From: Candidatus Jordarchaeales archaeon
GTDB lineage: Archaea; Asgardarchaeota; Jordiarchaeia; Jordiarchaeales; Freyrarchaeaceae
Direction of reading: 5' to 3'
Length of the DNA stretch: 5,349 nt
NCBI GenBank assembly: GCA_038858525.1
Contig: JAWCFL010000022.1
Span: 11,137-16,485, forward strand
Position numbers and translations under genes: made by a program. Under the pieces are notes generated by a model. That model searched no databases. It was not told the origin of the DNA and saw nothing but the letters and a program-made list of their open reading frames with translations. Positions within the stretch are counted from its first letter, which is position 1. Each line of letters starts with the position of its first letter. Below are positions 116-4,701 of this stretch, one piece after another.

Positions 116-1033
116 TCATGAGGCGAGCGTGGCGAGAAGCAATATTACTCCCCAGCAGATCATCAAGTATGGCTGGACCTTTTTCTGGTAAACATAGACC
201 ACGTAGACGGGCGTCTTGGGCTGAATAAGCAGAAAGTTCAGAACTTGCATGAAGAGCAAGATTGCCACTGGAAGCCAGTCAATGTTAAAGCGCCACGCTG
301 CTACCACCGTTAGAGTAATCCCTATTAAGATAAACATGCTGGAAGCTATTCTACCCTTTTCAAGGGAACCAAGCCTCACAATGCTCGTTTTGACTCCTGC
401 ATCGCTGTCGAAGACATAGTCCCCGAGCATGTTTTGAAGCTGAAAGATACATGATATGAAGAAGAAGGCTAAGGCGTAAGCGTAAGTCATGTTGTTCGGC
501 GATCCACCTCGGAAGTAGGCTCCCAGCAGAACTAGGAGCGACCCTAGGAAGAAGCCATGGGATACCACGTCTAAAAGTGGCTTCTCTTTAAGCCTAAATG
601 GGGGTGCCGAGTAGAGTAACCCTAGTATAAGACATGCCAGCGATAACAGCGCTCCTTCCAATCCACAAGTATATGCGAAGAAGGCAGCCGAGATGATGCC
701 TATGATTGAAGAGAAGGCGATCGCCCCCTTCACGCTCACTTCCTCTGCTGCGACGAGGTTGCTGGTTTTGCCAGCCAATCTATCCTCTTCAACATCAAAT
801 ATGTTGTTCACGGCAAATGAGAACCCATTAAGGAGAACTGAAAAGAAACCTAAAACAACAAAGTTCATGAAGAACTCTGGAAGAGTGAATTCTCTTAGTG
901 TTGTGGCCCACCCTAAGATCACTAAGCTAGCCCAGCTTGCCGCGTTCCACGGCCTACAGTTAAGAAAGAGCTTCCAAATCATAATTGGGTAAGCAACAGG
1001 TGGAGGTTGTCCACTTAAAGTCTCCTCACTCAA
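116..1033 (-). CDS. UbiA-superfamily intramembrane prenyltransferase, substrate unknown
   Basis: 305-aa multi-TM hydrophobic protein with an N-terminal RP motif (CRPWN), first Asp-rich motif NNIFDVEED, the YSAPPFRLK loop and second motif NMLGDYVFD-x-x-x-G-x-x-T. The TTG start at 1033 has a GGTGAT RBS (1045-1040) 6 nt upstream. Confidence 0.9.
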   Translation of the reverse strand: MSEETLSGQPPPVAYPIMIWKLFLNCRPWNAASWASLVILGWATTLREFTLPEFFMNFVVLGFFSVLLNGFSFAVNNIFDVEEDRLAGKTSNLVAAEEVSVKGAIAFSSIIGIISAAFFAYTCGLEGALLSLACLILGLLYSAPPFRLKEKPLLDVVSHGFFLGSLLVLLGAYFRGGSPNNMTYAYALAFFFISCIFQLQNMLGDYVFDSDAGVKTSIVRLGSLEKGRIASSMFILIGITLTVVAAWRFNIDWLPVAILLFMQVLNFLLIQPKTPVYVVYVYQKKVQPYLMICWGVILLLATLAS

Positions 1034-1241: not shown

Positions 1242-1886
1242 TTGATAATTACGGTGGCTAAGTCGGATGAGGAGGTAAGGCGGGCGCTTGAGCCATACCG
1301 TGACATAGTGGTCATTGGGTGTGGCACATGTGCTACCATATGCAGAACTGGCGGTGAGGATCAGGTGAAGGAGATGGTTGAAAAGCTTGTAGGGTGGGGT
1401 AAAAACGTTCTTGCTTCGATGGTCGTGGAATCCCCCTGCGACGTCAGGATAGACAAACGCGACCTCAGGAGAATCGAGGACGAGGTTGAGAAGGCTGACG
1501 CCCTTCTCGTTATGTCCTGTGGTGTGGGGGTGCAGGCTGTAGGCGAAGCCAGTGGAAAGAAGGTTTTGGCTGCTCTTGACACCGTTTTCCTTGGAGAGGT
1601 GGAGCATATAGGGCGCTTCTTGGAGAGATGCAGGGAGTGCGGGATGTGTGTTCTCAACGAAACCGAGGGACTGTGTCCCATGGTTCTATGCGCTAAGGGG
1701 CTCATGAATGGGCCATGTGAAGACATGATTAACGGAAAGTGTGGCGTCATAGAGAACGACGTCGACTGCGTGTGGGTTAAGGTTTGGGAGAGAATGAAGA
1801 ATGAGGGGAGAGAGGACGCCTTCCTCAGAGTTAACCCTCCCCTTGACAGAAGCGTCAAGGTTGGAGCAATGAAGGTTACGTGGTGA
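1242..1886 (+). CDS. metV: MetV, Fe-S/Cys-rich small subunit of MetVF-type methylenetetrahydrofolate reductase (MTHFR C-terminal-like domain protein)
   Basis: The start is moved from 1206 to TTG 1242 (MIITVAKSDEEV, matching the MIIT-x-x-K family N-terminus). Motifs GCGTCATICRTGGE, SCGVG, RCRECGMCVL and GLCPMVLCAKGLMNGPC...GKC...DCVW are present, 13 Cys in total. 214 aa, directly coupled to a metF-like gene. Confidence 0.9.
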   Translation: MIITVAKSDEEVRRALEPYRDIVVIGCGTCATICRTGGEDQVKEMVEKLVGWGKNVLASMVVESPCDVRIDKRDLRRIEDEVEKADALLVMSCGVGVQAVGEASGKKVLAALDTVFLGEVEHIGRFLERCRECGMCVLNETEGLCPMVLCAKGLMNGPCEDMINGKCGVIENDVDCVWVKVWERMKNEGREDAFLRVNPPLDRSVKVGAMKVTW

Positions 1887-2785
1887 TGGAATTGAAGCTT
1901 AAGGATTCTTTAAGGAAGGGCTTCACTCTGATTGGGCAGGTTAACTCAGCAAGAACTGTTGATGTAAACGTAGTAGTGAACGCTGTTAAATCCATGGGCA
2001 AAGTCTCCGCTGTTATAGTTTCAGAGCCTCAGGGAGTGCTGGGTGCAGCTAATACCGCTGTTGTTTCCGGCGTGGTGAAGAGGGAAACAGGGATGGAGGT
2101 CATTTGTCAACTCACGTGTAGGGACAGGAACAGGGCAGCTCTCCTTTCAGATGTGCTAGCAGCTAAAATGCTCGGCGTCGACTGTTTTCTCGTAACTGAT
2201 GGTAGTCACCCGAAGACGAGCGATATCCCTCAGGCGATGGCGGTCTTCGACTTGGACTCCGCTCAGCTAGTCCAAATGATCAAGCACCTCTCAGAAAAGG
2301 GTGAAACTCCAGCAGGCCACAAGGCTGAAGGGCAGCTTAACCTCTGCGTTGGGACCATTGCGTTCCCAGCGGCATCACCCATCGAGGTTGAAGTTAGAAG
2401 GCTGGAGAGAATGGCTAGACTTGGACTGGACTTCATGGTTACTTATCCCACCTTCAGCATAGAGGCACTGAACAGGTTCCAAAGTGAGACTAAAAGGCTT
2501 GATGTTCCAGTAATAGTCGGGATAAGAATGCTGCAAGACGTAAGAGACGCTCGGCGCCTCAACGAGGATCCACGAGTAACAGTTCCACCAGAGCTGATAG
2601 CTTCACTCGAAAAGGCTGAGACGCTGAAGGGCGAGGGAAAAGCGAATGCCTGCCTGGAGGCGAACCTCAACTTCTTTGAGGGATTCATTGAAGCAGTTAA
2701 AAGTAGCGGGTTCGCGGGTTGCAGTATACATGCCCCCGGAATAGAGCAGGCTGTAAGCCGACTAGTATCAAAACTTAAAACCTAA
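1886..2785 (+). CDS. metF: MetF-like (acetogen/MetVF-type MTHFR large subunit) protein with divergent active site
   Basis: 299 aa from ATG 1886, which overlaps the metV stop (TGATG). It keeps the subfamily motifs QLTCRDRNR, VFDLDS-x-QL, VPVIVGI and VTVP-x-E-L-I. Several catalytic positions are substituted (see findings), so the family call is firm but MTHFR activity is doubtful. Confidence 0.8.
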   Translation: MELKLKDSLRKGFTLIGQVNSARTVDVNVVVNAVKSMGKVSAVIVSEPQGVLGAANTAVVSGVVKRETGMEVICQLTCRDRNRAALLSDVLAAKMLGVDCFLVTDGSHPKTSDIPQAMAVFDLDSAQLVQMIKHLSEKGETPAGHKAEGQLNLCVGTIAFPAASPIEVEVRRLERMARLGLDFMVTYPTFSIEALNRFQSETKRLDVPVIVGIRMLQDVRDARRLNEDPRVTVPPELIASLEKAETLKGEGKANACLEANLNFFEGFIEAVKSSGFAGCSIHAPGIEQAVSRLVSKLKT

Positions 2786-2906: not shown

Positions 2907-2942
2907 ATGAAGAGTGTTTTCAGGTTTCTAAGGTGGTTGTAA
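2907..2942 (+). other. Candidate upstream mini-ORF (MKSVFRFLRWL) coupled to the DUF47 gene
   Basis: GGAGG (2895-2899) lies 7 nt before ATG 2907. The stop TAA 2940-2942 overlaps the DUF47 ATG (TAATG). Confidence 0.35.
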
Positions 2943-3619
2943 TGCCTGACCTGGCCGGCTGGTTCAGAATCAGAAGAGAGGAAAAATCCATTCACCTGAT
3001 CGATGAGCACAGCAGGAAAGTGTTCAGCTGCGTTATGGAACTCGTCAATTTAGTTGACTTAGTTATGAACGAAGGAAGCCCAGAAGAGGTTTTTATCGTT
3101 GCGCGTAGGATAAATGAGATGGAGCATGAAGCTGACATTATGAGAAGAAATGTTCTCGACGTTCTCTCAGAGGGAAAGCTCGACCCATCTGAAAGAGAAG
3201 ACCTAGTGCACCTCACGAAGAGGCTTGACGCCATCGCCAATAACGCCAACGCTGCAGCCAGAAGGATCTCTATCCTTAACCTGAACTACGTCCGAATGCT
3301 AGGCGAACCCTTCACCAAAATGGTAAGTGACGCTAAAAAATGTGTGGAAAAGCTTATGGAAACCATAGACGCCCTCAAGGATGGGCATGACGTTTCATTC
3401 CTAATTGACGAGGTGGAACGCGCCGAGTTTGAAGTGGACCAGGATCACCTTGCACTAAGAAAGGCGCTCCAAGACTGGAAGCACGGCGACGTTCCGCCTT
3501 TCACAGCGATAACCCTAAGCAACCTGATAGATTTTGTCGAGGGAATAGCGGACTCCGCCGAAGACACCGCGGACTTCATAAGGCTAGTCTCCATAAAGAA
3601 ACCACAAAAACACAAATGA
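2942..3619 (+). CDS. DUF47 / PhoU-like putative phosphate transport regulator (TIGR00153-like)
   Basis: All-helical 225-aa protein with repeated acidic motifs EHEADIMRR, REDLVHLTKRLDAIA, EFEVDQ and EGIADSAEDTAD typical of DUF47. ATG 2942 is preferred over GTG 2933 because AGGTGG (2931-2936) sits 5 nt upstream. Confidence 0.85.
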   Translation: MPDLAGWFRIRREEKSIHLIDEHSRKVFSCVMELVNLVDLVMNEGSPEEVFIVARRINEMEHEADIMRRNVLDVLSEGKLDPSEREDLVHLTKRLDAIANNANAAARRISILNLNYVRMLGEPFTKMVSDAKKCVEKLMETIDALKDGHDVSFLIDEVERAEFEVDQDHLALRKALQDWKHGDVPPFTAITLSNLIDFVEGIADSAEDTADFIRLVSIKKPQKHK

Positions 3620-3900: not shown

Positions 3901-4173
3901 TTGAAGGTTAGGGCAAGAGTTGTTGTGAGTGGAAGAGTTCAAGGTGTCTTCTTCAGGGATACTGCTAGGAGGGAAGCCAAGCTTAGAGGAGTAACTGGAT
4001 GGATTAAGAACCGTCCGGATGGGCGCGTGGAGGCAGTATTTGAGGGAGAAAAAGACGCTGTTGAAGCGCTTATCGATTTCTGCAGGAGGGGGCCACCCGC
4101 AGCAAGAGTAACCAACATAGAAGTCTTCTGGGAGGAATATAAAGGGGAATTCAAGGACTTCAGGATAAAATAA
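3901..4173 (+). CDS. acyP: Acylphosphatase
   Basis: 90 aa with the phosphate-binding loop [10 protein letters not shown] (catalytic Arg) and [12 protein letters not shown] (catalytic Asn), plus the C-terminal [10 protein letters not shown] start with GTGGTGGG upstream. Confidence 0.95.
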
Positions 4174-4179
4174 CTAGAC

Positions 4180-4701
4180 TCACCATTTTTCATAGTGTAC
4201 TACGCGCTCTAACGGTATTCTGGGCGGCATCGCTGGCGTTCTCCTAGATTTGCCTACTGGTATTATCGCCAATGGTCTCACTTCGTCTGGCAACTCAAGT
4301 ATCTCCCATACCCTCCTTTCATCGAAGGCTCCAACCCAGCATGTTGCTAGCCCCATCGCAGTCGCCGCCAGTAGAATGTTCTGCGTGGCCGCAGCGGTGT
4401 CCTGTATTACGTAAAGGTTCGCTCCTCGAGACCCATAATGAGCCGCCGTCCTCGGAACATTGGCGCACACAACTATTACTACAGGTGCTTCCGCTACGAA
4501 CCTCTGCCCAAGAGCAGCATTTGACAAAGCCTCCTTACGCTTCTTATCCCTCACAATCACAAACTCCCACGGCTGACAGTTCCCAGCTGAAGGGGCGAGT
4601 ATCGCCGCCTCCAGCAGTCTTCTTACCTCCCCGTCGGAAACATCCTCGTCAAGGTAACTTCGGACACTCCTTCTTGTCCTAACAACCTCGAAGAAATCCA
4701 C
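4180..4701 (-). CDS. Nitroreductase-family FMN-dependent oxidoreductase (NADH oxidase-like)
   Basis: 173 aa with RRSVRSY, APSAGNCQPWEF, QNILLAATAMGLATCWVGAF and R-x-P-L-E-x-V-V motifs. GTG start with a perfect GGAGGTG RBS (4715-4709) 7 nt upstream. Confidence 0.93.
   Translation of the reverse strand: MDFFEVVRTRRSVRSYLDEDVSDGEVRRLLEAAILAPSAGNCQPWEFVIVRDKKRKEALSNAALGQRFVAEAPVVIVVCANVPRTAAHYGSRGANLYVIQDTAAATQNILLAATAMGLATCWVGAFDERRVWEILELPDEVRPLAIIPVGKSRRTPAMPPRIPLERVVHYEKW

Follow-up and report, generated by a model that had tools for sequence, protein, structure and literature searches.

A MetF homolog with replaced active-site residues, kept beside MetV in a family of Freyarchaeia

Methylenetetrahydrofolate reductases (MTHFRs) of the MetFV type carry flavin mononucleotide (FMN) on MetF and [4Fe-4S] clusters on MetV (PMC8515935). 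A gene pair of this type lies in the stretch of DNA analyzed here (the window; 5,349 nucleotides, G000:C22:11137-16485), which comes from a 2.09 Mb, 92.7% complete genome of the Freyarchaeia (Asgard archaea). The gene in question is the metF homolog at positions 1886-2785, called metF* throughout, whose product MetF* is numbered by its own 299 residues. The gene pair, the subunit sizes, the Pfam domains (PF12225 and PF02219), the CRDRNR and VFDLDS motifs, and the cysteine pattern of MetV are shared with the MetFV enzyme of Clostridium ljungdahlii (FMN on MetF, two [4Fe-4S] clusters on MetV; PMC8515935), but in MetF* the equivalents of E28, D120, Q183, S26, T59, H273, K172, and A177 (E. coli numbering) are all replaced. 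The family of Freyarchaeia that holds metF* is designated f1 (genomes G000 to G004 from two genera, the window being part of G000), and its sister family in the same order f2 (six genomes, G006 among them). Close relatives of both MetV and MetF* are named Candidatus Freyarchaeota by NCBI.

A glutamate at position A is common to flavin adenine dinucleotide (FAD)-dependent MTHFR, the flavin-free reductase Mfr, and the F420-dependent reductase Mer (PMC11094777). When it is exchanged for glutamine, the remaining kcat is 0.01% in E. coli MTHFR (E28Q), 0.2% in Mfr, and 0.4% in Mer. With D120N, kcat falls to 0.3% and Km increases more than 40-fold; with Q183A/E, Km increases more than 250-fold (PMC11094777). 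D120 and Q183 are the pterin anchors, and S26, H273, E28, and T59 form a Ser-His-Glu-Thr quartet (PMC9900621; PMC11868366). The catalytic residues are also kept in a reverse-acting MTHFR (PMC11868366).

Three described proteins are especially close to MetF* in one respect or another. First, the MetFs paired with MetV in ANME-1 (anaerobic methanotrophic archaea), Bathyarchaeota, and Asgard archaea constitute one archaeal group of unproven function (PMC9012536). This type, which f2 carries, is nearest to MetF* in sequence (31-38% identity), but it retains TGE..P, TGDH, QTQ, and GxH, which MetF* of f1 does not. Second, the engineered inactive mutant Glu28Gln of E. coli MetF (PDB 1ZP4) has the same fold as MetF* and the same glutamine at the position of the catalytic acid; the mutant retains D120 and Q183 and binds FAD and CH3-H4folate, whereas MetF* is without those anchors. 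Third, the mycobacterial flavin-independent Mfr (PMC11094777) resembles MetF* as a protein of MTHFR fold outside the flavoprotein paradigm, but it keeps Glu9 and Gln177, is active with NADH, and has no MetV partner; no match of MetF* to Mfr was seen in a sequence search of the PDB. A paper on Freyarchaeia counts the metF gene as an MTHFR (PMC11291895), the genome in question being probably of the f2 type. In the literature, we found nothing relevant on archaeal MetF-like or MTHFR-like proteins without catalytic residues.

Replacement of the active-site residues

The open reading frame of metF* (+ strand) encodes 299 amino acids, and its product matches PF02219 with 59.8 bits (cut-off 24). The AlphaFold2 model of MetF* has a pLDDT (predicted local distance difference test) of 90.6, and the closest structures found by Foldseek were the MTHFR barrels of Thermus thermophilus, human, and E. 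coli, with TM (template modeling) scores of 0.67-0.78 (T. thermophilus: E = 4.5e-16, TM 0.77). With a Pfam score above the cut-off and a barrel like those of solved MTHFRs, MetF* belongs to the MTHFR fold, and that fold is, as far as the model tells, intact. The cut-offs of the MTHFR equivalogs in NCBIfam were not reached (TIGR00676, 49.4 versus 293.7; NF006396, 133.9 versus 453). The coupled metV gene with its conserved cysteines, in a pair kept at 12 loci, and the motifs CRDRNR and VFDLDS, both invariant in the clade, place MetF* with the MetFV type.

Residues were compared by aligning a profile of 35 family sequences with E. coli K-12 MetF (L002:1617-2507) using hhalign (probability 98.8%). 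The resulting column pairs were Q18/E28, S107/D120, Y187/Q183, M176/K172, and S280/H273, and a MAFFT alignment of 177 sequences concurs. Among the 169 other members of the latter alignment, on which all family percentages given here are based, these five columns hold E in 92%, D in 93%, Q in 91%, K in 94%, and H in 83%. Given such conservation, their joint replacement in MetF* is far from chance variation. A preliminary description, made from the letters of the window, had read Gln, Ser, Tyr, Met, and Ser at these positions; all five codons are where it placed them, and the two alignments back the equivalences. Its reading of a lost PP is borne out as well (PP to SA at residues 21-22, a column at least 85% conserved in the family), and the retained CRDRNR and VFDLDS motifs, the full length, and the TGATG overlap with metV (stop TGA 1884-1886, metF* ATG 1886-1888) can all be read in the sequence. 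The relevant features of metF* are listed below; clade counts refer to the seven distinct f1 MetF* sequences.

1931-1939, + strand: I16-G17-Q18, at the positions of E. coli S26 and the catalytic acid E28; I16 and Q18 in 7/7 of the clade (family T 86%, E 92%)
1937-1939, + strand: CAG codon of Q18, E28 position
2015-2017, + strand: I44, at the position of E. coli T59 (quartet, flavin side); clade I 6/7, L 1/7; family N 85%
2117-2134, + strand: CRDRNR, residues 78-83, retained and invariant in the clade; R79 and R83 in the predicted MetV interface
2195-2209, + strand: L4 loop T104-D105-G106-S107-H108; residues 104-108 contact MetV in the model
2198-2200, + strand: GAT codon of D105
2204-2206, + strand: AGT codon of S107, D120 position; clade S 5/7, G 2/7; family D 93%
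2243-2260, + strand: VFDLDS, residues 120-125, retained; in the predicted MetV interface
2411-2413, + strand: ATG codon of M176, K172 position; family K 94%
2426-2428, + strand: L181, at the position of E. coli A177 (human A222); clade L 7/7; family A 86%
2444-2446, + strand: TAT codon of Y187, position of the pterin anchor Q183; clade Y 6/7, H 1/7; family Q 91%
2573-2575, + strand: R230, clade-specific Arg in 7/7; family Gly 89%; in the predicted MetV interface
2723-2731, + strand: S280-I281-H282, with S280 (AGT, 2723-2725) at the H273 position (clade S 6/7, C 1/7; family H 83%) and H282 encoded by CAT at 2729-2731

Further columns conserved to at least 85% in the family are also changed: T to I16 (S26), PP to SA (21-22), N to I44 (T59), D to E47, N to C100, G to S112, A to L181 (A177), S to D218, and G to R230. 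At less conserved columns, Q is replaced by V185 (80%) and M by H282 (74%). MetF* has none of the residues expected of a competent catalyst (Glu at position A, Gln at position C, Asp or Glu at position D, and the quartet); judged from the alignments, nothing of the Ser-His-Glu-Thr quartet or of the two pterin anchors is left. Flavin binding is probably weakened too, because four positions on the flavin side are changed (the equivalents of T59, D120, K172, and A177). Six more database proteins with 70-81% identity to MetF* share the altered motifs, i.e. IGQV(D/N)S, (T/V)(D/G)G(S/G)HP, VT(Y/H)PTF, (L/I)ER(M/A), and GC(S/C)(I/L)(H/Y).

Orthology, constraint, and pairing with MetV

A scan of 40 related genomes showed that the other four f1 genomes each contain exactly one metF* (71-81% identity), so the replacements are clade-wide and strain-specific decay or an assembly error, which would have undone the preliminary description, is out. 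Relatives with intact E, D, and Q were not found within f1. All six f2 genomes have one MetF match each at 38% identity, with the canonical TGEIEPEK motif. Among 1.84 billion representatives clustered at 50% identity, there was one other close MetF* cluster (72%), and the next match had 33%. The frame is full-length and open in all five f1 genomes and in additional metagenome contigs (ENA, NCBI, JGI, Logan). In all five genomes, metF* is the only gene of the MTHFR family. In G000, neither a second PF02219 match (Pfam search) nor a second metF copy (tblastn with six diverse MetFs) was detected, and a second metV was not found either.

In a maximum-likelihood tree of 74 sequences, f1 MetF is sister to f2 MetF with a Shimodaira-Hasegawa-like approximate likelihood ratio (SH-aLRT) support of 90, and its stem measures 1.59 substitutions per site versus 0.19 for f2. 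Gene order is the same in f1 and f2, which makes metF* orthologous to canonical MetF; tree, synteny, and copy number indicate that it alone corresponds to the f2 gene, at the same place in the cluster, and the paralog considered earlier can be set aside. Small trees under the LG model gave f1 stems of about 1.3 for MetF, 0.49 for MetV, and 0.24 for Mer, i.e. 5-6 times the Mer value for MetF and about twice for MetV. Compared with the complete f2 genome, G000 showed identities of 68% for HdrA-MvhD, 56% for polyferredoxin, 56% for Mer, 60% for MetV, and 38% for MetF. Fast evolution of the whole f1 genome was considered and rejected for this cluster, the f1 stem of Mer being shorter than the f2 branch. 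From these comparisons, the acceleration on the f1 stem concerns only the MetVF pair, MetF more than MetV, and does not extend to the genome at large.

Ratios of dN/dS (NG86) within f1 were 0.08-0.14 for MetF* and 0.05-0.10 for MetV, and within f2 0.03-0.07 for MetF; between f1 and f2, dS is saturated. By this measure, metF* is under purifying selection that is about twice as relaxed as in its canonical counterpart. With catalytic residues gone, an open frame, and purifying selection across species, MetF* is a candidate pseudoenzyme.

Constraint is unevenly spread over the protein. Pairwise identity within f1, computed from the seven clade sequences, was 0.98 at 34 retained family-conserved sites (CRDRNR and VFDLD included), 0.79 at the sites of the predicted MetV interface, and 0.73 at 20 swapped family-conserved sites, versus 0.71 for the whole protein. 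In one group of canonical archaeal MetFs that diverged to a comparable extent (0.65 overall), the same 20 sites had 0.94 identity. Non-conservative changes are tolerated at swapped sites (D105G, S107G, E47K, M176A, Y187H, and H282Y), while I16, Q18, S21, L181, and R230 are invariant within the clade. The sequence comparison indicates that the former active-site positions, as a class, are without special constraint in f1, and that constraint now lies on the barrel core and the CRDRNR/VFDLDS surface.

MetV had been described as intact, and this is true of its domain (PF12225, 94.8 bits) and of the family-invariant cysteines, 12 of 12 of which are kept. Its homologs grade off without a break, with identities of 83-98% within f1, 59-62% for f2, and 45-55% for Verstraete-, Bathy-, and Thermoproteota. 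Yet at 13 of 81 family-conserved columns it has residues specific to f1, and these swaps cluster in the C-terminal domain (G142E, R149L, G160E, G161D, E168G, and Y182W). Near the cysteine motifs (residues 142-185), NGPCGG has become NGPCED, C-E-V has become C-G-V, and T-R-C has become V-L-C; the Glu of C-E-V is 100% conserved outside f1. G160E, G161D, and Y182W fall inside the predicted interface with MetF*, and E168G and R149L lie beside cluster cysteines.

Co-folding of MetV with MetF* reached an ipSAE (interaction prediction score from aligned errors) of 0.79 in three runs versus 0.02 for the best control; among solved complexes, 58 of 80 attain the mark applied, and among mismatched pairs 2 of 110, counts that hold only roughly here, as our own alignments were used. 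The runs share at least 93% of contacts, and the partners have a pLDDT of at least 90. On the MetV side, the predicted interface comprises residues 151-165 (the KGLMNGPCEDMING loop) and 191-203, and on the MetF* side R79, R83, residues 104-108 (the L4 loop, S107 included), 119-127, Y187, and 229-230. Contacts of lowest error join MetF* 119 and 121-127 with MetV 151-157, 197, 200, and 203. No MetV-like chain was found in the PDB by sequence search, so that recall of a solved MetFV structure is unlikely to account for the result. The co-fold supports binding of MetV to MetF*, in a predicted arrangement in which the CRDRNR/VFDLDS surface docks the Cys-rich C-terminal loop of MetV. This docking role would explain why the two motifs have been kept.

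MTHFR-like proteins without the canonical residues were also seen elsewhere. In the f2 genome G006 (L027:9808-11229), a divergent MTHFR-like protein (P0390, 280 amino acids, PF02219 38.8 bits) is encoded directly upstream of mer; it has Leu at the E28 position, misses the CRDRNR motif, and is preceded by P0391 (190 amino acids, outside known families). G000 has no counterpart of P0390. Weaker second and third MTHFR-like matches lie near mer in G021 and G031. Seven metagenome MetF representatives are without the position-A Glu, namely P0144, P0142, P0147, P0238, P0257, P0225, and P0196 (K, Q, T, Y, H, A, and A, respectively), and several Glu-less representatives have T-x-P instead of T-Q. The gene for P0144 (L031:1267-2139) overlaps a PF12225 metV by 8 nucleotides, and that for P0257 (L032:123-1037) is followed by a ferredoxin-like gene. 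Judged by sequence, MetFs without the canonical residues, of which one besides MetF* is likewise encoded next to a metV, may form a class that recurs and has been overlooked.

Gene neighborhood and C1 metabolism

The window contains seven recognizable genes. These, two candidate signals read by eye, and a block upstream of the window are as follows.

116-1033, - strand: UbiA-type prenyltransferase
1181-1189, + strand: TTTTAAATA, candidate archaeal TATA box upstream of metV, 53 nucleotides before TTG 1242
1242-1886, + strand: metV, Fe-S subunit, 214 amino acids, PF12225; probable start TTG 1242, reading frame open from TTG 1206
1886-2785, + strand: metF*, MTHFR-fold protein, 299 amino acids, PF02219
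2809-2814, + strand: T6 run 3' of the metF* stop, candidate archaeal terminator
2933-3619: DUF47/PhoU_div protein
3901-4173: acylphosphatase
4180-4701, - strand: nitroreductase
4937 to window end: OsmC-like protein
G000:C22:2653-9400, 3-10 kb upstream of metV: hdrB (CCG domains), hdrC-like gene, polyferredoxin (443 amino acids), and hdrA-mvhD fusion (793 amino acids), all - strand, then mer (+ strand)

Database homologs and gene calls of metV open with MIITVAK, which corresponds to TTG 1242 and not to TTG 1206 of the longest reading frame. The TTTTAAATA box would set the transcript start between these two codons.

The f1 genes run hdrB, hdrC, polyferredoxin, and hdrA-mvhD (all - strand), then mer, inositol-1-phosphate synthase, UbiA (- strand), metV, and metF*, with the hdrA-mvhD, polyferredoxin, and hdrCB genes conserved 4-9 kb upstream of metV. 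The f2 order is hdrA-mvhD (- strand) followed by a contiguous mer-metV-metF. G002 and G004, both of f1, have the same hdr-mer block; in G006 of f2, polyferredoxin, hdrA-mvhD, and mer are present, and hdrB and hdrC were not seen within the stretch fetched from it. Adjacency of mer to metV-metF recurs in many Asgard relatives. In f1, the UbiA prenyltransferase gene (window 116-1033) and a myo-inositol-1-phosphate synthase gene (G000:C22:10048-~11240) have been inserted between mer and metV.

A comparable association of genes is described for Moorella thermoacetica, where HdrCBA-MvhD-MetFV forms a six-subunit complex (Mock et al. 2014, as reported in PMC9012536). The f1 metVF* genes are likewise near hdrA-mvhD, hdrB, hdrC, and a polyferredoxin gene; in f1, however, the hdr genes are divergent, at a distance of 4-9 kb that is occupied by mer, inositol-1-phosphate synthase, and UbiA, and the link is one of gene neighborhood.

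As the preliminary description had proposed, the genome was searched for a second metF or a mer: no second metF was found, and a true mer lies 3 kb upstream of metVF* (TIGR03555, 430 bits). What looks like a 33-residue insertion in the Mer of G000 (G000:C22:~9089-9187) corresponds to a stretch of N letters (assembly gap or withheld bases) and not to biology; the remainder of the protein shares 94% identity with Mer of G002, a genome of the same genus. Redundancy with Mer is not a sufficient cause of the change in MetF*, since f2 with its canonical MetF also has mer directly upstream of metVF.

Other genes of one-carbon (C1) metabolism are distributed in the same way in both families. FolD, CdhD/E, and Pterin_bind are present in f1 and f2, and Fhs and a MetH-type domain were found in neither, which speaks against loss of folate enzymes in f1 as the cause. 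The one difference concerns the MetE-type methionine synthase domain (PF01717), present in 6/6 f2 and 0/5 f1 genomes (the latter 73-95% complete). With methionine synthesis lost, methyl-pterin made by MetF might no longer have been needed. As an explanation, however, this was rejected and is kept as a lead only: across the phylum, each of canonical MetF and MetE is also found where the other is missing, and the contrast between f1 and f2 is a single event. In family f15 (G026 and G036), a MetE-type gene lies directly beside a MetF-like gene.

Readings of the rewritten MetF and their meaning

We propose, with a probability of roughly one half, that MetF* has been catalytically disabled and that selection maintains it as a folded protein that partners MetV. 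On this reading, the gene descends vertically from the metF of a methylene-tetrahydropterin reductase of the MetFV type (Fe-S plus flavin), and on the f1 stem it lost the residues needed by all known enzymes of the reaction. MetF* would then no longer reduce methylene-tetrahydrofolate (methylene-H4F) or methylene-tetrahydromethanopterin (methylene-H4MPT); reduction of the latter would be left to the Mer encoded 3 kb upstream, and MetF* would act as a scaffold, possibly as an electron-transfer partner, for MetV, perhaps together with HdrA-MvhD, HdrBC, and polyferredoxin. The site-wise relaxation at the former active site favors such a dead structural partner. The central point of the preliminary description, that pterin-facing and catalytic residues were replaced together while barrel, motifs, and MetV persist, stands for the whole clade and with low dN/dS. 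Its suggestion of an enzyme for a modified archaeal C1 carrier appears unlikely, since archaeal MetFs in the same H4MPT/Mer context keep E, D, and Q, and Mer itself uses the Glu, Asp, and Gln equivalents (PMC11094777).

Several points weigh against a disabled MetF. The presumed inactivity is argued by analogy from E28Q, D120N, and Q183A/E mutants of distant homologs. Saturation of dS between f1 and f2 makes a branch test impossible, and the comparison of site rates draws on only seven distinct clade sequences. Some of the polar or charged replacements are invariant (Q18, S21, and R230) or mostly so (Y187, D105, H282, and D218), and MetV sped up on the same branch, with 13 fixed swaps clustered around its cysteine motifs and the interface (among them G160E, G161D, E168G, and R149L). 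Fixed polar swaps together with an accelerated MetV look more like a co-adapted new site than like plain loss. Also, the purpose of MetV being scaffolded by a dead MetF is not evident.

These points lead to the main alternative, a repurposed oxidoreductase, which we regard as possible but doubtful. MetV/MetF* would still be redox-active (Fe-S with or without flavin), its pocket and the MetV-facing loop rebuilt together for a substrate other than a methylene-pterin, and may be fed by the Hdr-type complex encoded nearby. The co-acceleration of MetV favors this alternative; the burst on the f1 stem affected both subunits but not Mer and was followed by purifying selection. New polar residues line the pocket (R230 in 7/7, Y187, D105, and H282 in 6/7, and D218 in 5/7 of the clade), MetV has changes in the predicted interface (G160E, G161D, and Y182W) and beside the cluster cysteines (E168G and R149L), and hdrA-mvhD, polyferredoxin, and hdrCB genes are conserved upstream. 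Against it, the swapped positions, taken as a class, change at the pace of the protein as a whole and accept non-conservative replacements, neighboring pathway genes give no hint of a substrate or a new reaction, and UbiA and inositol-1-phosphate synthase now sit between metVF* and mer. Slightly more tentative still is the specific form in which MetV/MetF* would be a new Fe-S-dependent oxidoreductase for a non-pterin substrate, working with the adjacent HdrA-MvhD/HdrBC/polyferredoxin in an electron-bifurcation-linked reaction, the barrel pocket and the cluster-bearing MetV loop having been remodeled jointly on the f1 stem; the residues invoked are Q18, D105, Y187, D218, R230, and H282 of MetF* and E160, D161, G168, and L149 of MetV. 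If true, this would be a previously unknown electron-bifurcation-linked reaction in Asgard archaea.

That MetF* is still a methylene-H4F or methylene-H4MPT reductase is improbable. D105 would have to stand in for D120, H282 for H273, and D/N20, near the E28 position, for the catalytic acid, or MetV would have to supply the groups. D105 and H282, named as possible compensators in the preliminary description, are indeed new, mostly conserved, two residues off the canonical positions, and on the same strands or loops; neither is invariant in the clade (Gly105 in P0004, Tyr282 in P0003). Asp is found at position 20 in 6/7 clade members, but the MetF* of the window has Asn20, and an acid at this position was inherited from canonical relatives (TGELEPE) that also keep the Glu equivalent to residue 18, so it is no compensating novelty. 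In the model, the MetV loop 151-165 with the new E160 and D161 touches the L4 loop, and FolD, CdhD/E, and the pterin-binding protein imply that C1 carriers are in use. However, both pterin anchors are gone at once, exchange of the position-A Glu for Gln costs three independent classes of reductase 99.6-99.99% of their activity (PMC11094777), and Mer already performs the step.

That metF* is being lost, or is an artefact of assembly or binning, is very improbable. In favor, its dN/dS is about twice that of f2 MetF, f1 genomes are small (1.7-2.7 Mb versus 3.5-3.8 Mb), and no MetE-type synthase was found in them. Against it, the full-length open frame recurs in five genomes of two genera and in metagenome contigs, dN/dS remains at 0.08-0.14, the 34 retained family-conserved sites are 98% identical in the clade, and the translational coupling to metV is kept.

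For the Freyarchaeia, this means that f1 carries a gene annotated as methylenetetrahydrofolate reductase that is without everything known to be needed for the reaction, and pathway maps that count an MTHFR there are probably wrong. The two sister families represent a natural experiment, with a rewritten and an active-type MetF in the same gene cluster. Their contrast opens tests of the roles of MetV and of the MetFV interface beyond catalysis, and of how Hdr-linked MetFV modules change function.

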